A stretch of DNA of 64,000 nt from an uncultured Dehalococcoidia bacterium (GCA_958295715.1 OY282371.1:875183-939182), one strand, 5' to 3'; counted from the stretch's first letter, positions 13,601 through 54,790 are shown. Translations and numbers: made by a program. Notes: generated from the letters alone by a model not told the origin.

Positions 13601-16600
13601 CGTCGCTGGAGGCCGCCGTGGCCGACAGGGAGACGCGAGCGGAGAGGGTGGAGGTGATGGCGCCGAGGGCGACGGAGAAGTCCTCTGAAGTCTCGGATAG
13701 GTCGTCGTTGACGATGGCGACGGTGAAGGTCTTGGTGGCCCCGGCGGCGGAGTTGGCCGTGAAGCTGACGGAGCCTGAAGCGGTGGAATCGTAGTCGGCG
13801 GCGACGGCGGTGTCGGCGGATGCTGCCCAGGCGACGGACACGGCGGCGTCCACGGCGTGGGAGAGGGTGACGGTGAAAGAGGCGTTGGCCCCCTCGGCGA
13901 CGTTGGCGGATGGGCCAGAGATGGAGAGGGTTGCGTTGTCGTCGTCGGTGATGGAGAGGGTGGCTGAGGAGACCGTCAGGCCGACCCCTGAAGTCGTGGA
14001 GCCGTTGACGATGATAGTCTCGTCGGCCTCGACGATGGCGTCGGAGGTGGGGGTGACGGCGAGGGTGACTGTGCCGGAGGCCGAGCCTGCGGAGATAGTG
14101 ACATTGGCGGGGGTGGCCGAGTAGTCGTCGGTGGCTGACGCGGTTCCCCCGAGGGTGACGGTGACGAGGGTGTCGGTGGCGCGGGTGGTGGAGCCGTCGA
14201 GGGTGGCGGTGACCGTGACGTTGGTTGCGGCGGCGGCTTCGCCGATGGAGGTGGAGCTGAGGGATAGGGATACGTCGGTGGGGGCTGAGTCGTCGTCGGT
14301 GATGGTGGTGGAGACGGAGGTGATCGTTCCCAGGGTTGGGGTAGGGCCTCCTCCTCCCGAGGGTGAGGAGATAGAGAAGGTGAATCCCTCGCCGGCCCCC
14401 TCGTCGATGACGTCCTGGGTGGTCTGGACGTCTACGGTCTGAGAGCCTGGGGCGGCGTTGGTGAAAGTCAACGTCCCCGAGGCGGCGGTGTAGTCACCGG
14501 CGCCGGCTGTTCCGTGGGCGGTGGCGTAGGAGACGGTGAGGTCTGATGTGGGTGTGACGCCCGAGGGGGAGAGGGAGACGGTGTAGGTGGCCTTGGCCCC
14601 CTCGTTGACGTCGGAGGGACCCGAGAGGTTGATAGTGATGGGGTCTGAGGCCGAGATGGTGACGTCGCTGGAGGCCGCCGTCCCCGACAGGGAGACCCGT
14701 GCCGACAGCGTGGAGGTGATGGCGCCGAGGGCGACGGAAAAGGCCTCGGAGGTCTCCGACAGGCTGTCGTTGACGATGGCGACGGTGAAAGTTTTCGTAG
14801 CCCCGGCCGCTGAGTTGGCGGTGAAGGAGACGGAGCCTGAGGAGGTGGAATCGTAGTCGGCGGCGACGGCGGTGTCGGCGGAAGCTGACCAGGCGACGGA
14901 GACGGATGCGTCTACGGCGTGAGAGAGGGTGACGGTGAAAGAGGCGTTGTTTCCCTCGGCGACGTTGGCGGCGGGGCCAGAGATAGAGAGAGTGGCGTTG
15001 TCGTCGTCGGTGATGGTGAGGGTGGCGGAGGAGACGGAGAGTCCCACGGAAGAATCCGTCGTGCCCTGGACGATGATAGTCTCGTTGCCCTCGACAATGG
15101 CGTCGGAGGTGGGGGTGACGGCGAAGGTGGCGGTTCCCGAGGCGTCGCCTGCGGAGATAGTGACGTTGGCGGGGGTGGCTGAATAGTCGTCTGTGCCTGA
15201 TGCGGTTCCCCCGAGGGTGACGGTGACCAGGGTGTCCGTGGCGCGGGTGGTGGAGCCGTCGAGAGTGGCGGTGACGGTGACGTTGGTTGCGGAGTCCGAC
15301 TCTCCGATGGAGGTGTGGCTGAGGGATAGGGAGATGTCTGTGGGGGCGTCGTCGTCGTCGGTGATGGTGGTGGACACGGACGTGACCGTTCCCAGGGTTG
15401 GGGAAGGCCCTCCTCCGCCTGAGGGCCCTGAGATAGAGAAGGAGAAGCCCTCGCCGGCGCCCTCGTCGATGACGTCCTGGGTGGTCTGGACCTCCACGGT
15501 CTGGGAGCCTGGGGCGGCGTTGGTGAAAGTGAGGGTCCCCGAGGCGGCGGTGTAGTCGTCGGCGCCGGCCGTGCCGTGGGCGGTGGCGTAGTTGACGGTG
15601 AGGTCGGAGGTGGGGGTGACGCCCGAGGGAGAGAGGGAGACGGTGTAAGTGGCCTTCGCCCCCTCGTTGACGTCGGAGGGGCCTGAGAGGTTGATAGTGA
15701 TGGGGTCTGAGGCGGAGATGGTGACGTCGCTGGAGGCCGCCGTGACCGACAGGGACACCCGGGCCGACAACGTGGAAGTGATGGCGCCGAGGGCCACGCT
15801 GAAGGCTTCGGAGGTCTCCGACAGACTGTCGTTGACGATGGCGACGGTGAACGTCTTGGTGGAGTTGGCGGCTGAGTTGGCGGTGAAGGACACGGAGCCT
15901 GAGGAGGTGGAATCGTAGTCGGCGGCGACGGCGGTGTCTGCTGAGGCTGCCCAGGCGACGGATACGGCTGCGTCCACGGCGTGAGAGAGAGTGACGGTGA
16001 AAGAGGCGTTGGAGCCTTCGGCGACGTTCGCGGCGGGGCCTGAGATAGAGAGAGTGGCGTTGTCGTCGTCGGTGATGGTGAGGGTGGCTGAGGAGACGGA
16101 GAGTCCCACGCCCGACGCGGTGGATCCCTCGACGATGATAGACTCGTTGCCCTCTACGATGGCGTCGGAGGTGGGAGTGACGGCGAAGGTGGCGGTTCCC
16201 GAGGCCGAGCCTGCGGAGATAGTGACGTTGGCGGGGGTGGCGGAGTAGTCCGTGGTTCCCGAGGCGGTTCCCGCGAGAGTGATAGTGACGAGGGTGTCGG
16301 TGGCGCGAGTAGTGGAGCCGTCGAGGGTGGCGGTGACGGTGAGGTTGGTTGCGGAGTCCGACTCGCCGATGGAGGTGGAACTGAGGGATAGGGAGATGTC
16401 TGTGGGGGCGTCGTCGTCGTCGGTGATGGTGGTGGAGACCGACGTGACCGTTCCCAGGGTGGGGGTTGGGCCTCCTCCGCCCGAGGGGGAGGAGATAGAG
16501 AAGGAGAAGCCCTCGCCTGCGCCTTCGTCGATGACGTCCTGGGTGGTCTGGACCTCGACGGTCTGAGAGCCTGGGGCGGCGTTGGTGAAAGTCAACGTCC

Positions 16601-42650: not shown

Positions 42651-42732
42651 GCCCCTCGCGGCGGCTTCAAGGGAGGCTCAGCCGTTCTCGCCGGCCCTCG
42701 CCCCGAACGCCGGGCGGTCAGCGAGACTCGCG

Positions 42733-42796
42733 CCGCAGCCCTCTGTACGGCGGCTTGCGGGTGGCGCTAACCTTGAGGCAAAGCTTTGAGGCGGCT
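42733..42796. repeat. Direct repeat copy 1 (64 bp, 63/64 identical to 51212-51275); imperfect similarity extends left to ~42676
   Basis: The repeat is CCGCAGCCCTCT(G/A)TACGGCGGCTTGCGGGTGGCGCTAACCTTGAGGCAAAGCTTTGAGGCGGCT. It also explains the identical MRVALTLRQSFEAA starts of track ORFs 42755 and 51234. Confidence 0.9.
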
Positions 42797-43274
42797 AGGA
42801 ACTCGTCGGTCAGCCTCGGAATGCGGCTATCGCATACTCCATACCTATGCCGACGGACTCTCCCATGGGGAGAGGGCGTGTCAACGGGGGGCTTATACAC
42901 ATCTTCCCTACAGGTGATGAGAGTTCGCCGTTATTTGCTTAGGCTTGTCATCTTCTACGTGAAGAAGCGGAACCGATAAGGCGCGTGTCTCAAGTCGGCA
43001 TTCGCTTGACTATTCGGGCGAGGACCTTTCGCATAGGCTAAAGTGACGGGTAGGTTTGCCTTACAAGGAAGCATTGACCCGGTTCATTGCTCATTGACAT
43101 AACGAGCGCTCAGTTCAGGGGATGGCGAGTTCCTAAGACTGGCAGGGTTCCGCTCTCAAATTACCCTACGCTCTGCTTTCAATGCGCTCAACCGCGCGTC
43201 GGATTTTGCCAAGCTCGAAAAGGCACTTCTTGCGCTGTTCGGAATCCATCTGCTTCATATCGGGGATCAGGTTT

Positions 43275-44168
43275 TTATCTAGCAGTTGTTTTTTTGAATT
43301 GCCTAAAGCGGTTGAGCCACGTGTTGTCGACGCCACGGTCCCTAGCGCTCTCGAACGCTCTTTCAAATGTTCCTTCACCGGACATCAGAATCTTGATTGG
43401 TTGAGGACCTGCTTTAGGCACATTGAGCACCTTAACCAGTTTTTCCCTGACATCCATTGCCGTTCTTATCTCGCCGCCTTTGATCTTCCTCACGACGACC
43501 TTATCCAAGTCTGGGTTTTCTTGGCGAGTCTTCTTTACAGCGTTGGGCCTCAAATACTCGTCGTAGTAGCTCCACCTGTTCACATCGTTCTCGTTATGAT
43601 CGACCATGAATTTGTATGTGCTAACGAGGTGACTCACCGACCGAGGTGAAAGACCCATTTCTTTAGCCATGTCTTGAACGCTGACGCCGTGCTTGATATT
43701 GCGCCGGTAGAGGTAGCCCGCTTGCTCATATGGAGCCCAGTCTTTTCTTCCTATGATGTGGTACTCACCAAGTAGCGCGAACACGAGCTTCTCGCTTATA
43801 TCGGCAGGAAGCAGTCGAACTTTTGCCTTGCCCCACCTAACGGCATCAAGCCTAGCGAGCTCACGATACGCAGCGAGTCTGCTATTCCCCTCAAGCACTA
43901 CAAGGTCCCCATCCCTCACCAACATAGGGTCTGTCAGTCCGCCGTTTGCTCTTATTGACTGGATGAGTTGCTTAACGTGATCCATTCTCTTGAGCCGGCT
44001 GTGAATCTCATCTTGAGACGGCACATCATCATGCCTCTGGATAAATGAGTAAATCCTCGGGTTGTCGGGATAGAAATTCAGATCAACGACTGGGAGGTAA
44101 CCACTCCTGACCGGCACCTCTTTACCCCCAAGCGTAAGAGAGTCGTTGCCCCACGTAGAATCAGACAT
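43275..44168 (-). CDS. ParB/Srx-superfamily (ParB N-terminal nuclease/NTPase-like) protein, paralog B, ~297 aa
   Basis: Track ORF 43275-44339, trimmed to the ATG at 44168 (MSDSTWGND...) with GGGAGC upstream. This start lies 20 nt after the SNF2 stop, whereas the longer ORF would overlap SNF2 by 150 nt. ParB-like core: FYPDNPRI...GGLTDPMLVRDGDLVVLEGNSRLAAYRELA. It shares KDWAPYEQAGYL with paralog A (REWDPYSKAKYL). Confidence 0.7.
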   Translation of the reverse strand: MSDSTWGNDSLTLGGKEVPVRSGYLPVVDLNFYPDNPRIYSFIQRHDDVPSQDEIHSRLKRMDHVKQLIQSIRANGGLTDPMLVRDGDLVVLEGNSRLAAYRELARLDAVRWGKAKVRLLPADISEKLVFALLGEYHIIGRKDWAPYEQAGYLYRRNIKHGVSVQDMAKEMGLSPRSVSHLVSTYKFMVDHNENDVNRWSYYDEYLRPNAVKKTRQENPDLDKVVVRKIKGGEIRTAMDVREKLVKVLNVPKAGPQPIKILMSGEGTFERAFESARDRGVDNTWLNRFRQFKKTTAR

Positions 44169-44188
44169 TATCCATGCTCCCGATAGTT

Positions 44189-45658
44189 CTATGCATCCAG
44201 TATAGCTCGCAAGATGCCTCCGAATTCGTAGGACATCTCCCTTTGGTATGTCTCCCTGTCGATGTCGCCCTGTGCCAACTGCGCTGCGATTCGTTTCGAG
44301 TGAAGCAGCGCCTCGATCCATTCGTCTATCGAGTCGCACATAATCAGATTATGAACGTGGCATACCCTGTTCTGCGATATCCGATGGATCCTGTCCTGTG
44401 CCTGGAGATAATCGTCTAGGCTAAACAGTCGGTCGTAGAAGATGGCGTGGTTCGCAACGGTCAGTGTCAGACCTTCCTTGGCTGAGCCTGGAGTGGCAAT
44501 GAAGACCTTGGCGCTTGGCTCATTGCGAAAGGTGCGAATCGCCAAGGTCTGCTCCATTGTGCTCAACATACCGTGGACCAACTGCGGATTATGCCAGCGC
44601 AGGATTTTCCCAAGCCACTCCACGTTGTCGACAAAAGATGTCCAGACTATGCACTTTCCCCCATTCCTAACTATAGATGCGACCAACTCAAGCAAAGTCT
44701 CCAACTTGCCGGGCTCAACGTGGTAGCTCGAGTCAATTAGCCTTGGGTTCGATGTCACCTGCACCAACCTGAGCAGGCGCTTCAATACCACGTCCGATTC
44801 GTCGGCCATGAGTTGACCGTCCTGGAAGACGATGGCTCGCAAAGACTCCCTGACCTGTCTATACATTTCTAATTGACGAGGTTCCCATTCCGTCCCCACG
44901 GAGTGAACGACTTTCTCAGGAAGGCTTATCTCGGCGCTTGCCTTGGTTTCCCTCACGGCAAATCCCGATATGGAGTGGAAAATGCGCTGAAGCTGAAGTT
45001 CCAGAGTCTGCTGGCGGGTCTCAGCGCCGGCCATGTCGTTCGACAGGTTCACGGACCTTTTGAATTCTCCGAAATCGACTCCAAGAGACGCGCCGTTGTC
45101 AAGGAACTTGATCTGCGCCCAGATATCGTGCGGGCGATTGGAAACAGGGGTTCCTGACATAATCACTCGCTTGGTGAAGAAAGGCCCCAGCTCCAAGAAT
45201 GTCCTGGTAAGAGCAGAATCGGGATTCTTGATCTTGGTTGACTCATCAAGGATCACCCCGACATTTCTGGTTCGGAGGAACAGGCGCATTCGCTCCTTCT
45301 CAGCTTTCACAGCTTCGTAGTGAGCGAGCATGACCCGGGCGGGGCTGTTGAAGACATAGAAGTTCTCGTTACGGTTGTTGGTCAGCACGCGGGGCGCCAG
45401 TTGAGAGTGAAAAGCGAGTTCAGTCTGCCAGTTGTCCAGGAGTCCCTTCTTGACAACGATCAGGGCGGTATCCAGATGACGATAGGACAGCCAGTGAACT
45501 ATGAGGTCTATTGCAACCTTCGTCTTGCCCAATCCCTGCTCATGGAAGATCGCTGCATACTCGAGATTTTTTACGGCGTTGACAGCTTCGAACTGGTATG
45601 CAAATGCCTGGCGCTTCAGGGTGAGGTCAGGCTCTCTCTTCAATGTCAGTTTCTGCAA
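44189..45658 (-). CDS. SNF2-family (SF2) helicase/translocase, compact 489 aa
   Basis: ORF track. Motif I is HEQGLGKT, motif II is VILDESTKIKN, motif III is MSGTPVSN. The C-lobe carries LTLTVANHAIFYD and motif VI QAQDRIHRISQ. Its start overlaps the upstream gene end by 13 nt. Confidence 0.85.
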   Translation of the reverse strand: MQKLTLKREPDLTLKRQAFAYQFEAVNAVKNLEYAAIFHEQGLGKTKVAIDLIVHWLSYRHLDTALIVVKKGLLDNWQTELAFHSQLAPRVLTNNRNENFYVFNSPARVMLAHYEAVKAEKERMRLFLRTRNVGVILDESTKIKNPDSALTRTFLELGPFFTKRVIMSGTPVSNRPHDIWAQIKFLDNGASLGVDFGEFKRSVNLSNDMAGAETRQQTLELQLQRIFHSISGFAVRETKASAEISLPEKVVHSVGTEWEPRQLEMYRQVRESLRAIVFQDGQLMADESDVVLKRLLRLVQVTSNPRLIDSSYHVEPGKLETLLELVASIVRNGGKCIVWTSFVDNVEWLGKILRWHNPQLVHGMLSTMEQTLAIRTFRNEPSAKVFIATPGSAKEGLTLTVANHAIFYDRLFSLDDYLQAQDRIHRISQNRVCHVHNLIMCDSIDEWIEALLHSKRIAAQLAQGDIDRETYQREMSYEFGGILRAILDA

Positions 45659-46101
45659 TGGGTCAACCTTCTTGACTGGTTTGCTGTATCCAGCCCGTCT
45701 ACCTCGGACAGCACAACGGTTTCAACGTGAGACATTCCCGACCTGGCTTGAAGGCTCGTGAGAAGCGCCCTGGCAAGTCGCTCAACAGACCAGGGAACCG
45801 CCAGTATGAATGCCGAGCCTTCGGCCATCCCGCATCTTCTGAGGAATTCAGTGACCTGTGCCTCTGTATGTGAATTCTCCAGATCTCTCAGACTCTTGGC
45901 TTCGCCAATGACGACTCTTCCCAGTTCGTTGAGCAAGACATACACGTCCGGCACATACCCTGCTATGGGTGGTGGGCGTGTACGCGATTCACTACTTATG
46001 GAGTCGGCAAAGATGCGAGCTCTTTTACCATCGCAGAATCTATTCGCGATGTAGCTGTGAAGCATAGCAACCAGGCTTGAGTGCTCCTCTGATTCAGGCA
46101 C
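45646..46101 (-). CDS. Small PD-(D/E)xK-fold nuclease candidate, 151 aa
   Basis: ORF track. The motif GYVPDVYVLLNELGRVVIGEAKS gives P51-D52 ... E67-A68-K69 in a beta-beta context, with acidic residues in the N-terminal helix (PESEEHSSLV). There is an 8-nt overlap with the upstream gene and a 13-nt overlap with the downstream gene. Confidence 0.55.
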   Translation of the reverse strand: MPESEEHSSLVAMLHSYIANRFCDGKRARIFADSISSESRTRPPPIAGYVPDVYVLLNELGRVVIGEAKSLRDLENSHTEAQVTEFLRRCGMAEGSAFILAVPWSVERLARALLTSLQARSGMSHVETVVLSEVDGLDTANQSRRLTHCRN

Positions 46102-47122
46102 TGGTGGATAGGGGTGAGGCGATGTATTTGCAGAGTTCAGCCAACCGGTCTCTCGCCTCAGTTAGAGCGTGATTATCAACGGTGTCCAGGTCTTCACGAA
46201 GACGACGTGAGTCCGGGTAGCTCATCTTATCGATGCGGTCCACCAGTGCAGTAGCGAGCTGGATCAGCGTCGCGTCCTCAAGGGCTTCAACAGTAGAGGG
46301 GCTGTCTAGAATCTTCAGTGCCTCGCGCGCTCCCCGTGCTAGAAATACTTTCCGCGCCTCCGAATTAGCGAGGATCTTCGGGAGTTTTCTAACAAGATTG
46401 AGTGGGTACAATCGTTGGTCATTGACCCATTCGGCAAAGTTAGTCTTTGAGTAACCTGACTTAGCCAGAGCTTCCTGTACCCCCGAAGCCTGCATTTCCA
46501 AAAAAGCGCTGAAACGAGTCGGGTCAAATTGGTCGTCACTGGTAAGGAGTGGGCGATAGTACTCCTCTATGTCGTTATAGGCGTCAATGAAACGATGCAC
46601 TTCAGACCGCTGACCGCCGCAGAAATCAATGATCTGATCTGTCGTCAGGTGCTCCGTGTTGCTGAGATAGTCAAGGTACTTGGCTTTAGAGTAGGGGTCC
46701 CACTCTCTTGGACCAACGAGATGAGCTTGGAGCCTGATGGCATCAATTGACTTCTGGTCAAGGTCGTCATACACGATCGCCGGGATCTCGTCCCACATGC
46801 TGCTACTGTTGTTACTCTTAAACTCTCGATAGATCAGGGCACGGGTATTTCCCTCAATGACAACTAGCCTGTTATCGACCTCTTTGTTGACCAAAATGGG
46901 GTGGATCAGCCCGCCATGAGTCCTTATCGCTGCCCTCAGACTTTGAAAGGTTGTCCTGTTTTCACCCGTCTCATAATTGGGAGCGCCAAGAGCAAGACTC
47001 ATCTGCTCGTCGGTTATTACTCCGCCATACATTTCCATATAAAGCGCCACCCGAGGGTTGGATGTATCGAGTACAAGCGTCTCGACCGGGAGCATCGCGA
47101 ATTGACCATTTCCTGCAGCCAT
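46094..47122 (-). CDS. ParB/Srx-superfamily protein, paralog A, 342 aa (ParB-like N-domain plus helical C-terminal region)
   Basis: ORF track, with GGAGAG upstream of the ATG. The ParB-like core is LPVETLVLDTSNPRV...HGGLIHPILVNKEVDNRLVVIEGNTRALIYRE. Confidence 0.7.
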   Translation of the reverse strand: MAAGNGQFAMLPVETLVLDTSNPRVALYMEMYGGVITDEQMSLALGAPNYETGENRTTFQSLRAAIRTHGGLIHPILVNKEVDNRLVVIEGNTRALIYREFKSNNSSSMWDEIPAIVYDDLDQKSIDAIRLQAHLVGPREWDPYSKAKYLDYLSNTEHLTTDQIIDFCGGQRSEVHRFIDAYNDIEEYYRPLLTSDDQFDPTRFSAFLEMQASGVQEALAKSGYSKTNFAEWVNDQRLYPLNLVRKLPKILANSEARKVFLARGAREALKILDSPSTVEALEDATLIQLATALVDRIDKMSYPDSRRLREDLDTVDNHALTEARDRLAELCKYIASPLSTSA

Positions 47123-47155
47123 ACTGTTTCTCTCCGGTGTGATACTAGCTCGGCG

Positions 47156-48745
47156 CTAATGTCCCTTATCGTCCAGAGCTGGCCGGGCCTGGGAATGATT
47201 CCTGCCCTTTGGTTTGGTTCTAATGCCTGAGCCGTTTTCCGCTACTCTGGATGCTTCCGCAAGAACCGATTCGATTAGCTCTTTTGCTGAACCCGGCGAG
47301 GGCGTGAGAGTTGCCAGAGCGCCAAACACTTTCTGGTAGATGACAGACTCAGAAGGAGTTATGTTGTCGAACTGTTGTAGCTTAGCTTCACCTGAGAAGT
47401 TGGTCAATAGTTCTTCAGCCCTGTCCAACCTCTCGAGAGAATCGTTGTCGAGATTGTCTTTATGGATGCTTTTGCGAACTTCCTGGACTTTCTGCAATGC
47501 TTCTTGGACTAAGCCGACGGAGTCTTCCTCGGTCAGGTAGCCGGACACTGCCAAGGAGTAGAGGTTCTCGATATTGCATAATGATGAGAGGGTCTTCCTG
47601 TCGCGGTTGCGAATCGTGGACTCTCGCCTGCACCGTGCACTGATCTCACGCAGGACTAGCCCGAGGCGGTTTTCGAGGTGGCGCAAATGGAATCCCGGCT
47701 GAAAATAGTCACGGCTGGCGTTTGGGATAATTCGTGAGTCCAGGATGTGAAGCTCCCCCACACACCATCGGTTGAACCGTTCCTCTGTATAGAGGTGGTC
47801 AAACACCGTCTCGCTACCAATCTGTATATTCCCAACCCTGGCCCTGATGCCACGAATTCGCTGCTCTTTGGGAATCGCCCCTAGGTAGGAGGAGTGTGCG
47901 ACCCACCCAACTGCCATATCACCGTTCCCGTCAGCGCTTGGTATTCGGACCTCTTGGAATTCCGTAAATTCAGCCACCTTGTTGGCAGAGAGTCGGATAG
48001 CTTCTCCGTGGGGTCTTTCGACTGCGTCTGGGTCTCCTTCCAGCAGGACTTTCAATGTGAGTGGCGCCTCAGCGCCATCAAATAGCCCCTTGACTCTCGA
48101 GGCGAAGGGAAACTTGGCGTTCATGGGAACTGGACATACTTCGCCAATATAGTCGCGTACCGCGTCACGATTCAGCAGTAGCCCTGCAGAGTGACGAGCC
48201 ACGCCTCCGACTTCAACCTCAAAAAAGTGATCGGGGTATTCCCGCCCCGGCAGAGTTTCTACATTGACGCACTCAAGAATGGCTCGCTCCAGCTCTGGTT
48301 CCGTGGAGGTCAGGTTAGGAAGCCGGTCGCTATGCCAGGTGATGCGCGTTACCGGTTTGTTCTGAGAGGCGCGTGTCGTGAATGCGACGGTCTTTGCAAA
48401 GGCAAGTCCGGCGAGGCGTCCAATGCCTCTGATTCCTCTGTCAATTCCCAACCGCTTGTTGCTGCGGCCGATAGGCAACAGCCGGTCAAGGGCATCCTCG
48501 CGAGACAGGCCGGGTCCGTTGTCTCGAATCCTGACTCGACGGTGAGTGACGTCAATCGCGATGTCTACCCTGGCTTCTTCCGCAGACCCACTTTCCATAA
48601 CCGCGTCAGCCGCATTTTGAATGTACTCACGGTACATGGACAGGGATTCGTCGTACAGCCCGGTTGTCACAAGCGCGAGGAGTCCAGCGCCCATGAGTTC
48701 GGGTGTTTCGTTCGTGTCAGCCAAAGCAATCATCTCTGAATTCAT
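47156..48745 (-). CDS. GHKL-superfamily ATPase (Hsp90/MORC/MutL-like HATPase), 529 aa
   Basis: ORF track. N-box is MYREYIQNAADAV (N44). G1 box is RIRDNGPGL. G2 is GIRGIGRLAGLAF. The region after the ATPase domain is large. The start overlaps the radical SAM stop as ATGA (48745-48742). Confidence 0.8.
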   Translation of the reverse strand: MNSEMIALADTNETPELMGAGLLALVTTGLYDESLSMYREYIQNAADAVMESGSAEEARVDIAIDVTHRRVRIRDNGPGLSREDALDRLLPIGRSNKRLGIDRGIRGIGRLAGLAFAKTVAFTTRASQNKPVTRITWHSDRLPNLTSTEPELERAILECVNVETLPGREYPDHFFEVEVGGVARHSAGLLLNRDAVRDYIGEVCPVPMNAKFPFASRVKGLFDGAEAPLTLKVLLEGDPDAVERPHGEAIRLSANKVAEFTEFQEVRIPSADGNGDMAVGWVAHSSYLGAIPKEQRIRGIRARVGNIQIGSETVFDHLYTEERFNRWCVGELHILDSRIIPNASRDYFQPGFHLRHLENRLGLVLREISARCRRESTIRNRDRKTLSSLCNIENLYSLAVSGYLTEEDSVGLVQEALQKVQEVRKSIHKDNLDNDSLERLDRAEELLTNFSGEAKLQQFDNITPSESVIYQKVFGALATLTPSPGSAKELIESVLAEASRVAENGSGIRTKPKGRNHSQARPALDDKGH

Positions 48746-50364
48746 ATAAGTTGCGTGCCCTTGACTGAGAGCGCTTCATCGTAATCGAACAGACCGGCGT
48801 CTTCAACGATCTCATCCTCCTCAAGACCGGGGTCATTCGCAGTCATTTCCGACATGAGTTGGTGACTCTGCGTCTTGGAGTCCTCCTGGGTATCTAGCCC
48901 GTGGAACAGCAGCAGATGTCGGATTCGCTGATCGACCGTTCGGTCGTTCGCCAATTGCCGGAACCGCCCTGAACCCATTCCATTCCTGTTGGCCGGATTC
49001 GCAAGTAGACTCATGAGTTCCTTCTCCTGCGACACTGAAAGGCTCTGGCGCAGTGACTCGTACTCCTCTCTCTGGGCTCGACCCTCTCCATTCTCAAAAT
49101 ACTCTCGATGGAATATGAAGGCGTGTGGCAGCCTGAGTAGCCGCTCGAACTCCTCGGAATTCTCCCCATAGGCCCTCAGGAAGAATGGCGGACTGCCGCT
49201 CACGACTCCCTTGGTGGCCTGTAGCATGAGTTGAAACGAGCGGAGGTAATACCGATTCCAATTCTTCCCGACATGTGAACGGTCCTTCAATGTCACGGGT
49301 TGGTATCGCATTGGGAACGACCAGATTCGGATTCCCAGTTCCTCGTTCAGGTCTATATTGAAGCGCATCCGCCGGTAAAGGTCTGTGGGAGTGTCCATGA
49401 AGTTGTACAGCATGTAATTTGACAAAGAGGTAATCTGGTTGTCAGCCGCCATGCGAATTGACTTCTCGTATACCTTTCTCAAACCGATGTGGTCGAAAGC
49501 AATCCTGAGCGGGCTGATGCAAATCGTCGCCATTTCGCGAAGGAACATGCTTGATTGCGCGAGGATTCGCGCGTCCACTCCTTGGTTGAAGTCCACTCGT
49601 CGCTTAACCGGGTGCTTTCCATCCCGTGATAATTTCGCTCCAGGTGTGAAACCTAGGTATCGAATCTCAGCTATCACCTCCTTGTAACGGGCAGATGCCG
49701 TGATGTTGTTGTCCATGAGCACGAGGTCTTTCTTCTCCCCGTACCGTTTGCTCACCTCTTCAATTAGATTGACGAGGGGTGGCATCTCTCGTTGGGCGCC
49801 CTCCAGCTTCGGCACCCCGCAGAACGAGCACTTCCTCACGCATCCACGCGACGCGTATCCGAAATAGGCATCATGGACTGGGTAGCTGTAATCGATATGT
49901 TTAAGGATACCGTAGTCAGGGACCAGTTCCTCGACCGGGGTGCCGGCCAAGTCGTCGGCTCCAAAGTCGTAGTCGTCGGCCGACAATGCAAGGGACGCTG
50001 CCGGAGGGCCATCAAGCAAACCTTTGATGAAGCGTACTCCGGTCCAACGAGGTTCATTAAGGAAGGCATCAAGCATGAGCGAAACCGCGATGCCGCCGAC
50101 AAACACGCGCTCCGGTTGATTGCCTGCAGCCCGTATAGCGAAGTCGATTGCCGAGGCAGTCCGTTTCCACTCGAAGGTGAAAAGCGTGGTCACATAGACC
50201 CGGTCCCACGCTTGATTTAGCGCTTCCTTGTTTTCGCCCTTTATGAACGTGACATGGTCGCCTCGACCAAAAGAGCCGTGATAAGTGGCAAGTTTCATCA
50301 GGCCTAATGGTGGGTACTTGTTTGGGTAACCCGGCTCAATTAACAGGATTTCCCTGGGTATCAT
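48742..50364 (-). CDS. Radical SAM enzyme with N-terminal B12-binding-like (class B-type) domain, 540 aa
   Basis: ORF track. The CX3CX2C cluster ASRGCVRKCSFCGV (C175, C179, C182) maps to nt ~49819-49842. The N-terminus ILLIEPGYPNKYPPLGLMKLATY resembles the cobalamin-binding Rossmann lead-in of class B radical SAM enzymes. It is the first gene of the operon. Confidence 0.8.
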   Translation of the reverse strand: MIPREILLIEPGYPNKYPPLGLMKLATYHGSFGRGDHVTFIKGENKEALNQAWDRVYVTTLFTFEWKRTASAIDFAIRAAGNQPERVFVGGIAVSLMLDAFLNEPRWTGVRFIKGLLDGPPAASLALSADDYDFGADDLAGTPVEELVPDYGILKHIDYSYPVHDAYFGYASRGCVRKCSFCGVPKLEGAQREMPPLVNLIEEVSKRYGEKKDLVLMDNNITASARYKEVIAEIRYLGFTPGAKLSRDGKHPVKRRVDFNQGVDARILAQSSMFLREMATICISPLRIAFDHIGLRKVYEKSIRMAADNQITSLSNYMLYNFMDTPTDLYRRMRFNIDLNEELGIRIWSFPMRYQPVTLKDRSHVGKNWNRYYLRSFQLMLQATKGVVSGSPPFFLRAYGENSEEFERLLRLPHAFIFHREYFENGEGRAQREEYESLRQSLSVSQEKELMSLLANPANRNGMGSGRFRQLANDRTVDQRIRHLLLFHGLDTQEDSKTQSHQLMSEMTANDPGLEEDEIVEDAGLFDYDEALSVKGTQLI

Positions 50365-50698
50365 CAGCAGAACCTAGGGTTGTTATTATGTGTCGCTACA
50401 TTTCGCGTGGCCATGGTATACCAACTATTCTGGCTCCCTAAAATCCCCAATCCAGTGTACGTTTATACTGGTCGGGTTCGATGAGGCTGGCTAAGTCCCG
50501 GATAGCCGCTGACCTGCTATCGGCGGCTATGTCATCACTGATAGAGGTGAGGAAACCTTTGCCGTCACCGGTCATGCCGCGTCCTCAATACTCCACACTG
50601 CAGGTCTTGATTATACTTTAGGCGGCGGGAGAGCGCCATCGTGATGGCAGGAAAAGACAGGCGGCCTCCCATGTTGTGGCAGCCCCTGACGCCGGGGC

Positions 50699-51150
50699 TC
50701 ACCGCTGTGGGGCAAACTTCACCTCCCAGAGGCTGCCCTCGCGGGCACGTACTGGCCGGTGCGGATGCGTTTGATGGGATAGGCCGGCAGCTGGCGCACG
50801 GCGATGCATTTCCCGCCGCCATTGGCGGCATGAGCTTTAACGTTGAAGTCTAAGTTGTGGAAGTAGTACTGCGCCGAGCTGGGGAGGTCCTTCTCGTCGG
50901 CGGGGACCAGATGCAGGAAAACTTTTGCCTCCACGTCGGTCAGGGCGCACGGCTCCTTGACGTAGTACAAGTTGCGCTCGTCGAGGTATACAGGTCGTAG
51001 GTGGAGCGGACCTCCGGCTCTCCCACCTCCTCGATACGCGCCAGCACGTCAAGGCCGTTCCGCCGGAATTGGGTCAGGTCGTGGTTGTAGATGCGCCAGG
51101 CTGATATGGGGGCGCCGGTGTCCTTTTGCCGATGCGCTCAGCCGCTTGCC
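50699..51150 (-). pseudogene. Decayed 3' fragment (~150 codons, several frameshifts) of a paralog of the membrane-protein gene at 52537-54690
   Basis: The DNA aligns by eye with 52537-52990, for example ...cacctcccagaggctgccctcgc..., gtactggccggtgcgga, ccgccggaattgggtcaggtcgtg. The track ORF 50719-50970 peptide YYVKEPCA..VFLHL.P.DEKDL...GGGKCIAVRQLPAYPIKRIRTGQYV matches the C-terminus of the 717-aa protein. Indels of 1 and 2 nt break the frame, and the 5' two-thirds of the gene is missing. Confidence 0.8.
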
Positions 51151-51211
51151 GGCTTTAATCTAGAGTCGCTCGGCCCTCGACTCGGACGCCGGGCGGTCAA
51201 GGGGATTCGTT

Positions 51212-51275
51212 CCGCAGCCCTCTATACGGCGGCTTGCGGGTGGCGCTAACCTTGAGGCAAAGCTTTGAGGCGGCT
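51212..51275. repeat. Direct repeat copy 2 (64 bp), ending 4 nt before the nagZ-like ATG and including its GAGG ribosome-binding site
   Basis: See copy 1. Imperfect similarity extends left to ~51136. Confidence 0.9.
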
Positions 51276-52509: not shown

Positions 52510-52536
52510 CGCTTGCGGAGGCCGCGGCGGCGGGCT

Positions 52537-54690
52537 TCACCGCCGTGGGGCGAACTCCACCTCCCAGAGGCTGCCCTCGCCGAGCACGTACTGGCCGGTG
52601 CGGATTCGTTTGATGGGATAGGCCGGCAGTTGACGCACGGCGATGCATTTCCCGCCGCCAATGGCGCCATAAGTCGCAAAGTCGAAGTCCAAGTTGTTGA
52701 AGCCGTGCTGCGACCAGCTGGAGAGGTCCTTCTCGTCGTCGGGAATCAGATGCAGGAAGACGGTGGCCTCCGCGTCGGCCGGGGCGCAGGGATCCTTGAC
52801 ATAGTACAAGTTGCGCTCGTCAAGGTACACGACGAAGTGGTCGTGCACCGCCGGCTCTCCCGCCTCCTCAATGCGCGCCAGCACGTCGACGCCGTTCCGC
52901 CGGAATTGGGTCAGGTCGTGATTGTAGACGTGCCAGATTGATATGGGGACGCCGCCATCCTTTCGCCGGTAGGGTTTTCCCGCTTGAAGGACTCCCGCCA
53001 CCGTCTCGGCATACGACAATAAACGGTACTCATTGGGCAGGTCGTCTTGTTCTCTGACAAACTTGACGGTGTAGTAGGGCCGCCCGGCTTCCTCCGGCGG
53101 GGTGTAATGCGCCTCGTATTCTCGGCCGTAAAACCGTGAGAGAAAGACGCGATAGGCGTAGCGGTTAACTAGATTACCCGTCATTTCGTTGGGGTTCTCA
53201 TACCAGACGTGGATGTAATAGCCCTGGTCGTAGAGGGAGGTGACGTCGGCCAGAAGATCGGCTTCGGTGTGGCGGACGCTGTGCTGGGCGACGGTCTGAA
53301 ACAGGAAGTTGTAGTAGTTGGCCAGGATGAAGAAGGTTATGAAGGAAGCTAACCCAATGGCCACTAAGGGTCGTGGGCGCCAACGCCCAAGGCGCCACTG
53401 GGGCAGCCGCTCCTCTAGGGCGAACTTGGCGGAGAAGGCCAACAGCGTAGTGAAGACCGGTATGAGCATGTACCAGTAGCGTAGGACCTGAAGCCAGGAG
53501 AAAGAGATGATGAGGCACATGCTCGCAAACAGGCCGAGGAGAAACAGCGCGAAGATAAACTCATTGCTGAACCGGCCCTTGGCCGCTTTGCGCACGATGA
53601 AGAACAGCAGCGCCGCCGAGAGGAGGGCAAGACCGGCAGTGATGAGAAGGGACGTCTCAACCTGGAAGAGCTGACCGGAAATCCATCTCGCGTTCTCCCA
53701 GATTAGACCGGGCGTTATGTCGGGGACGTAGTAGCTGCCCCCGTTATCCGATGCAACGCTCAGTCTGTAGAGGGTGTGGAGAAAGACCAGGACCAGCGCC
53801 AGACCTCCCAGGAACTTCCATCGGTCGACCCTTTTCAGGATATTCGCTGCGCCTTTGAAGGGGCGTTTCTGCCCCTGATTCCCGTGTCCTTCTCGCCGCG
53901 CCGCCTCTATCAGGAGCAGGGCAAAATAGGAGACCAGAAGCCATAGCGCGACGGCGACGTTTACTTCCTTGGACCAGACGAGGCCTATGAATCCTGCGTA
54001 AAACGCGCCGTGTATGAGTATTGTGCTCCGGAGGTCATCCTTTCTGCCGGCTCTCAAGAGCATCAGCGCCATCATCCAGACGCAGATCCCCATGAAGAAG
54101 ACGGTGTAGAGTTCCTGGGGTGACAGCCGGGCGGCCGGTTGATTGGGGAAGAATAGCCACAGGTATACCAATACCGCCAAGGGCAGGAGGTAAACTAGCC
54201 GGTTCCTCAAGCCGCTCCGAGACGTCATTTCCGTGGACGTGGAATCCCCGTTTGGGCGGGAATGACGTTGGCGCGAGTCGCGGGAGATGCAGATGAAGGC
54301 GGCGGCGAAAGCGAAGACGGAACCGAAGTGCACAACCCACCGGGCCAGGTGATGCAGCCATGGAGTGGGGCCAAAGGTCTTCCAGGCGGCGGCGTTGTAG
54401 AACTCCCAGAAGGGCTTATACCTCTCAAGGTCAAAATTGAGGAACTGTTCGTTGACCCATCCGAAGAACGCCCCCGGGCTGTCGAAGATGCGAACAGTCC
54501 ACAAGTCTCCATAGTCGTCCACCAGGGCGAAGGGCGTGTTCAGGGAGTAGTAGAACACGGGGACGAACAGCAGGCACGGGATAGCCGCGAAGATAACGGC
54601 CTGCGGCGCCGGGCTGCGCCAGGGCTGCTTGAGGCGGCTGATTAGGGCTGAGAGCACAGCATTTTCAAATATGGGGCTGGCGCTGAACAC
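52537..54690 (-). CDS. Polytopic membrane protein (>=10 TM) with ~250-aa C-terminal soluble domain; possible GT-C-fold (ArnT/PMT-like) glycosyltransferase
   Basis: ORF track. It has many hydrophobic helices and an acidic motif ALVDDYGD after TM1, as in GT-C enzymes. The function call is tentative. GTG start. Confidence 0.6.
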   Translation of the reverse strand: MFSASPIFENAVLSALISRLKQPWRSPAPQAVIFAAIPCLLFVPVFYYSLNTPFALVDDYGDLWTVRIFDSPGAFFGWVNEQFLNFDLERYKPFWEFYNAAAWKTFGPTPWLHHLARWVVHFGSVFAFAAAFICISRDSRQRHSRPNGDSTSTEMTSRSGLRNRLVYLLPLAVLVYLWLFFPNQPAARLSPQELYTVFFMGICVWMMALMLLRAGRKDDLRSTILIHGAFYAGFIGLVWSKEVNVAVALWLLVSYFALLLIEAARREGHGNQGQKRPFKGAANILKRVDRWKFLGGLALVLVFLHTLYRLSVASDNGGSYYVPDITPGLIWENARWISGQLFQVETSLLITAGLALLSAALLFFIVRKAAKGRFSNEFIFALFLLGLFASMCLIISFSWLQVLRYWYMLIPVFTTLLAFSAKFALEERLPQWRLGRWRPRPLVAIGLASFITFFILANYYNFLFQTVAQHSVRHTEADLLADVTSLYDQGYYIHVWYENPNEMTGNLVNRYAYRVFLSRFYGREYEAHYTPPEEAGRPYYTVKFVREQDDLPNEYRLLSYAETVAGVLQAGKPYRRKDGGVPISIWHVYNHDLTQFRRNGVDVLARIEEAGEPAVHDHFVVYLDERNLYYVKDPCAPADAEATVFLHLIPDDEKDLSSWSQHGFNNLDFDFATYGAIGGGKCIAVRQLPAYPIKRIRTGQYVLGEGSLWEVEFAPRR

Positions 54691-54714: not shown

Positions 54715-54790
54715 TGGTGGAGCTGGGGGGACTCGAACCCCCTACCTCTTCAATGCCATTGAAGCGCTCTCCCAGCTGAGCTACAGCCCC
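54715..54790 (-). tRNA. tRNA-Ala (anticodon GGC), 76 nt, CCA encoded
   Basis: The reverse complement is GGGGCTGTAGCTCAGCTGGGAGAGCGCTTCAATGGCATTGAAGAGGTAGGGGGTTCGAGTCCCCCCAGCTCCACCA. It folds as a cloverleaf: 7-bp acceptor stem with the G3:U70 alanine identity pair, D-arm GCTC/GAGC, anticodon stem CTTCA/TGAAG with loop AT-GGC-AT, and T-arm GGGGG-TTCGAGT-CCCCC. Confidence 0.95.

Follow-up and report, generated by a model that had tools for sequence, protein, structure and literature searches.

What have six tightly packed genes in an uncultured Dehalococcoidia bacterium been brought together to do? The window analysed here (the whole stretch of 64,000 nt, GCA_958295715.1 OY282371.1:875183-939182) carries six co-directional minus-strand open reading frames at 43166/43275-50364, encoding a radical SAM enzyme (rSAM), a GHKL ATPase, a ParB/Srx-like protein (ParB-A), a PD-(D/E)xK nuclease, a SNF2-family ATPase and a second ParB/Srx-like protein (ParB-B), in that order. 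An ORF scan recovered all six at the coordinates first read, and the junctions along the operon measured -4, +33, -8, -13 and +20 nt, exactly as the initial annotation had given them. The features of the locus are as follows.

48742 to 50364, minus strand: radical SAM enzyme, 540 aa (ORF; Pfam Radical_SAM, weak, 1.7e-4)
47156 to 48745, minus strand: GHKL (Bergerat-fold) ATPase, 529 aa (Pfam HATPase_c_3, 8.5e-9)
46094 to 47122, minus strand: ParB/Srx-like protein A, 342 aa (Pfam ParB_N, weak; PADLOC PDC-M38A, 2.4e-11)
45646 to 46101, minus strand: PD-(D/E)xK nuclease, 151 aa (motif conservation; AF2 model)
44189 to 45658, minus strand: minimal SNF2-family ATPase/translocase, 489 aa (Pfam SNF2-rel_dom, 6.6e-28; Helicase_C, 1.4e-13)
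43275 to 44168, minus strand: ParB/Srx-like protein B, 297 aa as read (NCBIfam parB_part, 7e-6; PADLOC PDC-M38A, 8e-9)
43166 to 43295, minus strand: 3'-terminal part of ParB-B, moved to another frame (one surplus A in the A7 run 43289-43295)
50385 to 50413, minus strand: promoter-like pair of hexamers, some 20 nt before the rSAM start codon
42692 to 42796, plus strand: left copy of a direct repeat (repeat search; perfect 51-nt core 42746-42796)
51171 to 51275, plus strand: right copy of the direct repeat (repeat search; perfect 51-nt core 51225-51275)
50681 to 51131, no strand assigned: gene fragment within the island (repeat families D1, D2 and D4; matching translations)

The operon is real and was horizontally acquired. 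Its GC content (0.51-0.56 over 43-51 kb) lies below that of the flanks (0.60-0.67), and it is bracketed by the direct repeat (105 nt, 90% identity), the right copy of which overlaps the start of a GH3 gene; both features had been claimed from the first reading, and the GC profile and repeat search confirmed them. The perfect 51-nt core is present only at these two positions, with 0 matches expected by chance. The gene fragment duplicates, at 83-86% identity, the 3' end of a 717-aa membrane-protein gene (52519-52968) and was probably left behind by the recombination event through which the island arrived. The hexamer pair is the only candidate for the operon promoter and lacks statistical support, 4 such sites being found against 5.0 expected from shuffles.

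The domain assignments proposed for all six genes were upheld by Pfam, NCBIfam, PADLOC, AlphaFold with Foldseek, and motif conservation, and the catalytic motifs listed for them are present and invariant across homologues. The rSAM consists of an N-terminal Rossmann (B12-binding-like) domain, a barrel with the CX3CX2C motif (C175/C179/C182, invariant in 24-31 homologues), a helical C-terminal domain and a disordered tail with an invariant VEDAGL(F/Y) motif at residues 520-526. The closest PDB folds to its AF2 model (pLDDT 87.5) by Foldseek were TsrM, MgmA, MiaB, OxsB, CysS and RimO (E 4e-10 to 3e-6; identity 12-15%; TM-scores of about 0.4-0.47), which share the Rossmann domain, barrel and C-terminal domain, and NCBIfam gave weak matches to B12-rSAM and MiaB/RimO models and nothing stronger. 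The modelled fold is thus class-B-like, closest to the cobalamin-type rSAM methylases and MiaB/RimO; the enzyme is not a methylthiotransferase, because the homologue alignment contains no cysteines for an auxiliary cluster in the N-domain. The substrates of those structural neighbours are RNA, peptides or small molecules. The genomic partners of the window rSAM are DNA enzymes, and distant phage-encoded relatives are located inside DNA replication or recombination modules.

The start codon of the GHKL gene shares 4 nt (ATGA) with the rSAM stop codon. The N-box (E40/N44/D47), D75xGxG79 and G2 (G104-G109) motifs of the ATPase are invariant across homologues. As in the BbrUII/HgiDII family, MzaB and the paraMORC operons, a Bergerat-fold ATPase is encoded here beside nucleases and helicases, and the window protein weakly matches REase_II and BbrUII models in PADLOC and NCBIfam; however, its best relatives by sequence profile against the PDB are the HtpG/Hsp90 N-domains (4e-12). 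We know of no member of those restriction-linked groups that has a radical SAM enzyme as its partner.

The remaining four genes form a nuclease-helicase cassette. ParB-A (D19xxNPR24, G91-N-T-R94; alignment A6) and ParB-B (NPR, G94-N-S-R97) are paralogues (hhalign probability 99.9%, E 1e-33), in both of which NPR and GN(T/S)R are invariant across homologues; neither is detectably of the DndB type. The start and motifs of ParB-B were read correctly at the outset, but its end at 43275 was not: DNA alignment with loci L001, L002 and L011 revealed a 1-nt insertion, the last 38 or so codons are read in the ORF 43166-43378, whose translation matches homologue C-termini, and the gene really ends about 110 nt further on, at about 43166, the homologues being 331-340 aa long (alignment A7) against 297 aa as read. 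The nuclease gene overlaps that of ParB-A by 8 nt and that of the SNF2 protein by 13 nt. Its product gave no match in Pfam or PDB sequence searches, although two members of its family match Pfam FokI_C or AHJR-like; P51-D52...E67-A68-K69 and Q82xxxF86 are invariant in 30 sequences, and the AF2 model (pLDDT 85.7) has PaqCI, MunI, McrC, a CdiA-CT toxin and Mus81 as top Foldseek matches, at weak E values from 4e-3 and a probability of 0.91. The SNF2 protein, with GKT45-46, D138-E139 and Q419xQDRxHR426 invariant in 55 sequences, matches the PADLOC models of ZorD (1.3e-41), DpdE (2.6e-33) and DrmD (4e-18).

Do the six genes belong together? Of 80 related genomic loci, 78 have the rSAM and GHKL genes side by side, and the full ParB-nuclease-SNF2-ParB cassette accompanies them in 53 of the 80, in the window order (14 loci), upstream of the pair as a cyclic permutation (37) or inverted (2). 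A common circular order of the six genes is therefore kept in 51 of the 80, as well as on further metagenomic, plasmid and viral contigs; the unit spans at least nine phyla and dozens of bacteria, including plasmids of cultured bacteria, and recurs at rSAM identities of 37-57% (L082, L087, L094-97, L101), the arrangement holding down to about 37-44%. ATGA overlaps are frequent among the related loci, dS is similar across genes in the two closest comparisons, and purifying selection acts on each of the six (dN/dS 0.07-0.28; 0.07-0.13 for the rSAM). Across phyla the rSAM is 62-91% identical against 27-50% for the cassette, as would be expected for an enzyme with a universal substrate. The six-gene neighbourhood, which the initial annotation proposed to look for elsewhere, thus does recur in other genomes. 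The notion of a six-gene system holds as regards co-inheritance but not as regards fixed composition, since what stays constant is the rSAM-GHKL pair, which is combined with one or another of a set of interchangeable nuclease/helicase modules.

These alternative partners comprise a NurA-like protein with an uncharacterised protein and a second GHKL ATPase (13 loci); GHKL-620, an accessory ATPase matching MzaB and REase_II, with a protein of about 330 aa; a DndB/DpdB-HEPN fusion (DpdB 2e-18); PIN_8, GHKL and DndB on plasmid pNL1; and UvrD, DrmA (2.8e-161), DrmB (1e-52) and NERD-UvrD. DndB/DpdB-like proteins adjoin the pair in many relatives. In two related lineages, with rSAMs 63% identical, the pair closes DrmA-DrmB operons, for which no methyltransferase was found in the DNA in view, which excludes their upstream side. 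The placement of the pair directly after DrmA-DrmB, where DISARM carries its methylase, strengthens the case for a putative writer role of the rSAM.

The islands sit in a defence-like, mobile context. Their GC content is below that of the flanks in 66 of 79 loci, above it in none; copies were found on conjugative plasmids (pNL1, rhizobial plasmids), on IMG/VR contigs and flanked by IS elements, and some lie among ICE-type genes (DUF932, RadC, ERF). At least 14 of the 142 nearest flanking ORFs match known defence genes at E<1e-10, a raw count with no matched genomic control, among them mad3, AriA, AbiEi/Eii, CBASS cyclase and 2TM, MkoB, GajB, DRT and PDC-S01; transposases and integrases are also found there, and individual loci have TA, Mrr, MTase or HNH neighbours. 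No flanking sequence is common to the window and the 80 loci, and the phyletic spread is patchy despite very high sequence identity.

The earlier view that no named system fits this combination was sustained by PADLOC 2.0, NCBIfam 20.0 and full-text literature searches, RefSeq names being generic. DISARM (DrmA/DrmB/DrmC with DrmD or DrmE) is likewise multi-gene and helicase-rich, with an SNF2 component (DrmD, class 1) and a self-marking enzyme, and is tied to the window by the DrmD match and by the relatives of the pair that follow bona fide DrmA and DrmB. The window, however, lacks DrmA, DrmB, DrmC (PLD) and a methyltransferase, its SNF2 protein scores higher against ZorD and DpdE, and the protein that would do the marking belongs to the radical SAM enzymes and is no N6-A or C5 methylase (DrmMI/MII). 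The DNA phosphorothioation systems Dnd (DndABCDE-DndFGH) and Ssp (SspABCD-SspE) and the 7-deazaguanine system Dpd resemble the logic proposed below, in which a conserved modification module (in these systems a catalytic writer and a DNA-engaging ATPase, with the ParB-superfamily DndB or DpdB) is served by interchangeable restriction modules, and Dpd also has an SNF2 helicase (DpdE). Unlike them, the window encodes no cysteine desulfurase, PAPS-reductase-like DndC/SspD, SMC-like DndD, TGT (DpdA) or preQ0 genes; Pfam, PADLOC and NCBIfam agree with the first reading on the absence of cysteine desulfurase and TGT. GmrSD/SspE/BrxU-type enzymes (DUF262 fused to a nuclease), which read modification status, also couple a ParB/Srx-fold NTPase to a nuclease, and the 8-nt overlap of ParB-A with the nuclease resembles a split enzyme of this type. 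Here, however, NTPase and nuclease are encoded as distinct polypeptides, the latter is of the PD-ExK class and not HNH-like DUF1524, the operon additionally has an SNF2 motor and another ParB paralogue, and Pfam found neither DUF262 nor DUF1524 in the window proteins.

We infer a defence function, with the rSAM acting on DNA and marking self. The reading we favour, to which we give about an even chance, is a horizontally mobile, two-module, restriction-modification-like anti-invader system, whose rSAM-GHKL pair would mark self DNA and whose cassette would attack DNA left unmarked. The first module would be the tightly coupled, strongly conserved class-B-like rSAM and GHKL ATPase, the latter engaging DNA and positioning the rSAM, which would use radical chemistry to mark host DNA covalently, for instance by methylating an unactivated carbon. 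The second would be an exchangeable restriction cassette, here the two ParB-like NTPases, the PD-ExK nuclease and the SNF2 translocase: the ParB-like proteins would load onto DNA and sense whether it is marked, and the motor and nuclease would translocate on and cut unmarked incoming DNA.

The strongest competitor, possible though distinctly less probable, is defence that marks no self, with the pair as an infection-triggered effector or signal generator and the cassette as sensor or second effector. The rSAM might then make a modified, chain-terminating or toxic nucleotide, as viperins do, or damage invader nucleic acid directly. In known restriction-modification-linked systems, GHKL ATPases are usually counted as part of the restriction machinery, and on that view the pair could act as effector and not as writer; a constant pair with variable partners also fits a conserved effector with swappable sensors, and the structural neighbours of the rSAM are not DNA enzymes. 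Prokaryotic viperins provide radical-SAM anti-phage defence with no self-marking. The same holds for the Ophion system, composed of rSAM, PHP and PRTase (bioRxiv 10.1101/2025.09.30.679545). Like the system proposed here, both have a radical SAM enzyme as their hallmark, but their partners and architecture are entirely different: PADLOC rSAM models do not match the window enzyme, and a two-domain rSAM of about 540 aa paired with a GHKL ATPase is unlike the compact viperins. The variable partners (PD-ExK, NurA/PIN-like, HEPN, NERD-UvrD) are, moreover, typical effectors and not sensors, and both the DISARM-like operons that end in the pair, with no methylase in view, and the recurrence beside it of DndB/DpdB-like proteins, companions of DNA modification in Dnd and Dpd, argue against this alternative.

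An unlikely alternative is a selfish module serving its plasmid, ICE or prophage carrier through addiction, exclusion or plasmid competition. Carriage on conjugative plasmids and IMG/VR contigs, among ICE-type genes and between IS copies would suit it, as would the ParB/Srx-fold proteins, known mediators of plasmid-plasmid conflict (e.g. Osa). Many copies, however, are chromosomal and lie between housekeeping genes with no other mobile-element genes nearby, and genuine defence systems, too, are typically carried in this way; this explanation overlaps with the self-marking one and does not exclude it. Very improbable is a housekeeping role in DNA repair or chromosome maintenance, in which a ParB-like factor would serve partition or condensation, the SNF2 protein would act in remodelling and the rSAM would carry out repair chemistry, although the ParB, GHKL and SNF2 families all include housekeeping members and spore photoproduct lyase is a precedent for rSAM repair of DNA. 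Against it stand the patchy spread at very high identity, GC below that of the host, module shuffling, IS and plasmid carriage, the want of shared flanking sequence and the absence of any NCBIfam equivalog match. Nothing was found in favour of a chance juxtaposition of six unrelated genes, which is refuted for practical purposes by the retained circular order, the stop/start overlaps and the similar dS.

The ParB-B frameshift, if it is not an error of assembly, may impair the operon copy in this bacterium. Across the wider family, the unit appears to be a so far unnamed anti-phage/anti-plasmid system, with a radical SAM enzyme apparently, by analogy with comparable systems, in the place of the DNA methylase.

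The initial annotation proposed an undescribed DNA-modification or defence operon of six minus-strand open reading frames (ORFs), and all six were recovered at the coordinates claimed for them:

48742-50364, minus strand, ORF of the radical SAM (rSAM) enzyme
47156-48745, minus strand, ORF of the GHKL protein
46094-47122, minus strand, ORF of ParB-like protein A (ParB-A)
45646-46101, minus strand, ORF of the 151-aa nuclease
44189-45658, minus strand, ORF of the SNF2 protein
43275-44168, minus strand, ORF of ParB-like protein B (ParB-B)

The claimed junctions of -4, +33, -8, -13, and +20 nt are reproduced on these coordinates, and the GC content of the block is indeed lower than that of its flanks (0.51-0.56 over 43-51 kb, against 0.60-0.67 on either side). 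The direct repeats reported around the block were found as a 105-nt pair of 90% identity at 42692-42796 and 51171-51275, the 51-nt core of which is perfect and has no third copy in the window. The right edge of the island carries a further duplication:

50681-51131, gene-fragment copy of ~450 nt, 83-86% identical to 52519-52968

This fragment duplicates the 3' end of the adjoining gene for a 717-aa membrane protein and looks like a recombination scar. No integrase was found inside the island, and the ~450-nt gene copy, taken with the perfect 51-nt repeat, suggests arrival by recombination from a related genome rather than via an integrase.

The extent of ParB-B required partial revision, as the ORF is real but its 3' end was misplaced, with coding running to about 43166. 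Alignment with homologues revealed a 1-nt insertion (an extra A) in the A7 run at 43289-43295, the last ~38 codons being in a different frame within ORF 43166-43378; the ParB-B of the closest relative is full length at 335 aa. The frameshift in the window copy may reflect an error of assembly or real decay. Searches with Rfam and a tRNA scan detected no RNA gene inside the island and a sole one in the window, which directly adjoins the gene of the 717-aa multi-pass membrane protein (52537-54690; no Pfam match):

54715-54790, minus strand, tRNA-Ala(GGC)

A scan for promoters and terminators returned counts at or below chance.

The window also contains a giant ORF:

4614-41528, minus strand, ORF of 12,304 aa

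Its product opens with an N-terminal signal or transmembrane (TM) segment followed by about 20 leucine-rich repeats (LRR_8, 8.8e-73). Dozens of nearly identical repeat units containing Calx-beta come next, before a Pro/Thr-rich linker and a C-terminal TM helix. This ORF accounts for the strongly positive GC skew between 5 and 38 kb. Such a giant putative “eukaryote-like” adhesin fits a host-associated, possibly sponge-symbiont, lifestyle.

The domain assignments made from the translations withstood profile and structure searches. The CX3CX2C motif of the rSAM enzyme, by which the superfamily ligates its [4Fe-4S] cluster, is C175-x3-C179-x2-C182; these cysteines do not vary among 24-31 homologues, the most distant at 31% identity. 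Its Pfam rSAM match scores under the gathering threshold (22 vs 29.5 bits) and a PDB sequence search matched it around the cluster motif only; with the AF2 model (pLDDT 87.5), every Foldseek match with E<=1e-3 is an rSAM enzyme. The best of these matches, at E values of 4e-10 to 3e-6 and a TM of about 0.45 for the AlphaFold model, are the cobalamin-type methylases TsrM, MgmA, CysS, and OxsB, together with MiaB/RimO; none of these structural neighbours acts on DNA. The AlphaFold model comprises a Rossmann domain, an rSAM barrel, and an all-helical C-terminal domain, and the predicted N-terminal Rossmann-type domain, of the kind that binds cobalamin in class B rSAM enzymes, superposes on TsrM, MgmA, and OxsB, with no match to Pfam B12-binding in that domain. 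The hallmarks of MiaB/RimO are three UPF0004-domain cysteines, which hold an auxiliary cluster, and a C-terminal TRAM domain. A methylthiotransferase of this type is ruled out because the N-domain cysteines are absent, no invariant cysteine lying ahead of C175 in the homologue alignment, and the C-terminal region is all-helical. Residues 510-540 (about 48745-48835, minus strand) form a predicted disordered C-terminal tail with a VEDAGL(F/Y) motif that is invariant across all close homologues and is probably a docking peptide. The tail is acidic and hydrophobic, resembling partner-docking tails such as SSB tips and clamp-binding motifs.

In the GHKL protein, the Bergerat-fold motifs N-box (ExxxNxxD), G1 (DxGxG), and G2 are represented by the invariant E40/N44/D47, D75/G77/G79, and G104-G109; Pfam HATPase_c_3 matches above its cut-off and the profile matches HtpG at 4e-12, the nearest likeness being to the N-domains of Hsp90/HtpG. 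ParB-A and ParB-B are paralogues (hhalign E 1e-33) in which NPR (box I-like) and GN(T/S)R (the phosphate-binding box II, GxxR) are invariant, in line with the ParB/Srx-like calls. Their matches to ParB_N and parB_part are weak, as is that to PD-Lambda-5_A of PADLOC, and PDC-M38A of the same collection is matched partially, over approximately the first 320 (ParB-A, 2e-11) and the first 200 (ParB-B, 8e-9) of its 715 profile positions. PDC-M38A and PD-Lambda-5_A are uncharacterised PADLOC candidates; no paper naming PDC-M38 was found in the literature. ParB-B showed no detectable similarity to the DndB/DGQHR protein of plasmid pNL1 in a comparison with that single sequence, which is a weak test. 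The PD-(D/E)xK assignment of the 151-aa protein is upheld by the invariance of D52 and E67-A68-K69, and Q82xxxF86 is likewise invariant. No Pfam or PDB sequence match was obtained for this nuclease, a PDB profile search yielding a chance match alone; the order of secondary structures in its model (pLDDT 85.7) fits an alpha-beta-beta-beta-alpha-beta core, its top Foldseek matches are restriction endonucleases, weakly so (best E 4e-3, probability 0.91), and two homologues have FokI_C or AHJR-like Pfam matches. The SNF2 protein, recognised by Pfam at 6.6e-28 (N-lobe) and 1.4e-13 (Helicase_C), is a minimal core with Walker A, DExx, and motif VI invariant in 55 sequences.

Had the combination been fortuitous, its homologues would not be expected to co-occur elsewhere, and they do. 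The rSAM family is very large: clustering at 90% identity leaves more than 7,000 clusters (E<=0.001), and at 50% identity there are 266 (E<1e-30). A cluster look-up of rSAM relatives gave no informative names. Scanning one genome per species yielded 80 loci with an rSAM identity of 62-89%, and rSAM and GHKL genes are adjacent in 78 of them. The cassette of the other four genes (ParB-A, nuclease, SNF2, and ParB-B) lies beside relatives of this pair in 53 of the 80, in the order of the window at 14, upstream on the same strand at 37 (a cyclic permutation), and inverted at 2; in 20 of the 37 upstream arrangements, the ParB-B stop overlaps the rSAM start by 4 nt. The six genes are found together again at a mere 37-57% rSAM identity, on a metagenomic contig beside ICE-type genes, on the Roseomonas mucosa plasmid p2-AD3, and on IMG/VR contigs. 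The 80 loci come from metagenome-assembled genomes (MAGs) labelled as Dehalococcoidia and other Chloroflexota, Acidimicrobiia, Acidobacteriota, Latescibacterota, Spirochaetia, Nitrospirales, Binatia, Gemmatimonadota, Thermodesulfobacteriota, and Alpha- and Gammaproteobacteria. Several bear sponge-associated names (Poriferihabitaceae, Spongiihabitans), and many carrier lineages are, going by organism names only, apparently associated with sponges. The rSAM enzyme is conserved at 62-91% identity, against 27-50% for the cassette. Judged by a dN/dS of 0.07-0.28 for all six genes against three close relatives, the operon is under purifying selection; dS is similar among the six genes in the two closest comparisons (L093 and L001), as expected for genes that are co-inherited and functional.

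The system is mobile. Its GC content is more than 3 points below that of the flanks in 66 of 79 loci and higher in none, and a search for a shared insertion site found no flank homology between the window and the 80 loci. Homologues lie on plasmids of cultured strains, including Novosphingobium aromaticivorans DSM 12444 (pNL1, locus SARO_RS17510-17535), Rhizobium leguminosarum WSM1325, and Roseomonas mucosa AD3, with the six-gene locus of the last (plasmid p2-AD3) situated between IS elements. When the two nearest ORFs per side were collected for 39 six-gene loci (142 ORFs), at least 14 matched known defence proteins at E<1e-10 (mad3, AriA, AbiEi/Eii, CBASS cyclase and 2TM effector, MkoB, GajB, DRT helicase, and PDC-S01), 9 were extra GHKL genes, and transposases and integrases were common; toxin-antitoxin pairs, Fic, Mrr, N6/N4 methylase, HNH, and PIN occurred at single loci. 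These counts, taken without a matched control, favour a defence context and are supportive rather than decisive.

In loci without the cassette, other modules stand beside the constant rSAM-GHKL pair:

NurA-like protein, 565-aa protein, and second GHKL, at 13 loci
620-aa GHKL (REase_II/MzaB-like) and ~330-aa protein
770-aa DndB/DpdB-like protein fused to a Swt1-type HEPN domain
pNL1 of Novosphingobium aromaticivorans: PIN_8, GHKL, small DndB-like protein, rSAM, GHKL, and DndB-HEPN
large DEAD helicase with 1018-aa and 386-aa proteins
Firmicutes-type contigs, recurrently: UvrD-like protein, unknown protein, DrmA, DrmB, NERD-UvrD, rSAM, and GHKL

The partners of the pair are all predicted nucleases, helicases, or DNA-binding NTPases, and the modules are exchangeable around a tightly coupled rSAM-GHKL pair. 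In the Firmicutes-type operon, DrmA and DrmB score 2.8e-161 and 1e-52 in PADLOC, and the arrangement is kept between two related lineages with rSAMs 63% identical; no methyltransferase lies in the visible DNA of these operons, whose upstream sequence is limited. An extra ~620-aa GHKL gene follows the six-gene system at about 17.5-20.4 kb in six loci (L002, L005, L006, L008, L011, and L012), an arrangement frequent among the Dehalococcoidia loci and absent from the window. The conserved ~330-aa protein encoded after it in L008 and L012 has the motifs YFGLPG and VVYLDYFG and no Pfam match, and a ParB-like identity for it was rejected, hhalign detecting no relation (probability 0.1).

Smaller arrangements were also encountered. 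An Arenicellales MAG (L078, around 8100-14000) has a minimal trio of ParB-B-like protein, rSAM, and GHKL; two small ORFs recur in inverted orientation on its two sides, so that it looks like a composite transposon; at another locus (L003), the same two small ORFs directly follow the rSAM gene and the GHKL gene is absent. Solo rSAM relatives, about 31-36% identical, occur inside replication/recombination modules on phage-like IMG/VR contigs (L106, 7998-9527; L111, 7995-9416; L107, 7899-10606). One of them has a UDG-exonuclease fusion on one side and a family A DNA polymerase on the other; a YqaJ exonuclease and an RDF-like protein bracket another, and the third has a second rSAM gene after it. 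These relatives could be enzymes that serve phages in DNA modification or in counter-defence.

The assertion that the operon fits no named system is sustained by PADLOC, which gave generic helicase and partial ParB matches alone for the six proteins, the SNF2 protein matching ZorD, DpdE, and DrmD. The domains described as missing were indeed not matched in the six proteins, be it a methyltransferase (Pfam, PADLOC, and NCBIfam) or a cysteine desulfurase, TGT, or PglZ. NCBIfam 20.0 holds no specific model for the six, and RefSeq names the plasmid homologues “radical SAM protein”, “ATP-binding protein”, and “DGQHR domain-containing protein”. BREX is dismissed for want of a match to the PglZ phosphatase or the BrxC ATPase, the helicase C-lobe alone resembling BrxHI (7.6e-11). 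Zorya combines MotAB-like membrane proteins (ZorA/ZorB) with ZorD, a fusion of SNF2 and Mrr nuclease; no ZorA, ZorB, or ZorC was found, the match of the SNF2 protein to ZorD is confined to the helicase part (profile positions 439-879), and the nuclease of the window is, in contrast, a separate small protein. The phosphorothioation systems Dnd and Ssp employ a PAPS-reductase-like ATP pyrophosphatase (DndC/SspD) and an ATPase (DndD/SspC), neither of which was matched in Pfam, PADLOC, or NCBIfam, nor was a cysteine desulfurase. For Dpd, which modifies DNA with 7-deazaguanine, there is no TGT (DpdA) or DpdC, and the SNF2 protein alone matches DpdE models because both belong to a common helicase family; DpdB-like proteins accompany relatives of the pair but not the window. 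The core of DISARM consists of the DrmA helicase, DrmB (DUF1998), and DrmC (PLD), associated with the methyltransferase DrmMI or DrmMII; none of the six proteins matches DrmA, DrmB, or DrmC, neither methyltransferase is present, and only distant relatives of the pair, not that of the window, are linked to DrmA and DrmB. The overlapping ParB-A and PD-(D/E)xK genes resemble, in split form, a reader-nuclease of the GmrSD/SspE type. The system was rated as akin to multi-gene, modification-type defence islands.

That the operon is a conflict or defence system is considered highly probable. Within that frame, the rSAM-GHKL pair would form the constant core of a system resembling restriction-modification, and it is most likely the writer of a self mark. 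Dnd, Ssp, and Dpd each combine a catalytic writer with an ATPase that engages DNA, their restriction modules being swapped, and the conserved core with variable nuclease and helicase partners seen here matches that pattern. The same reading is favoured by the DndB/DpdB-type proteins that repeatedly adjoin the pair, since elsewhere they go with DNA-modification modules, and by the position of the pair after DrmA-DrmB without a visible methylase (in two related lineages, with limited upstream sequence), given that DISARM normally carries one. It is further favoured by the far better conservation of the rSAM enzyme than of the cassette, which fits a universal substrate, and by the location of distant phage-encoded relatives in replication/recombination modules. 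Mechanistically, the GHKL partner would load the rSAM enzyme onto DNA, where it would write a radical-installed mark, such as a methyl group or other adduct on an unactivated base or sugar carbon, serving as the self signal on host DNA; ParB-A and the nuclease would act as a split reader-nuclease and SNF2 would provide translocation. The full model, with writing and restriction combined, stands at even chances in our estimation.

Full-text literature searching found no description of this gene combination, the nearest item being Ophion, a different three-gene system (bioRxiv 10.1101/2025.09.30.679545). The main rival to a self-marking pair is an rSAM effector triggered by infection and involving no self-marking, as in viperins or Ophion, and this we regard as unlikely. 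The broadest form of the self-marking proposal is put forward tentatively: a chemically new, radical-installed self mark in a restriction-modification-like family whose pair is combined with at least five restriction modules (including DrmAB in place of a methylase), and which has spread horizontally across at least nine phyla, many apparently sponge-associated, and onto plasmids of cultured Alphaproteobacteria.

One putative defence island shared at 62-91% protein identity by very distant bacteria, apparently of the same habitat, is a striking case, and the presence of homologues on plasmids of cultured, tractable strains renders the system directly testable. If the self-marking proposal is true, this would be a widespread defence family that marks self by radical SAM chemistry, in contrast to methyltransfer, sulfur insertion, or base exchange as the marking step, and it would explain what replaces the methylase in DISARM-like operons showing none. 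The epigenetic DNA mark would then belong to a new class and the enzyme activity would likewise be new, and should the chemistry be confirmed, the system could prove categorically new.
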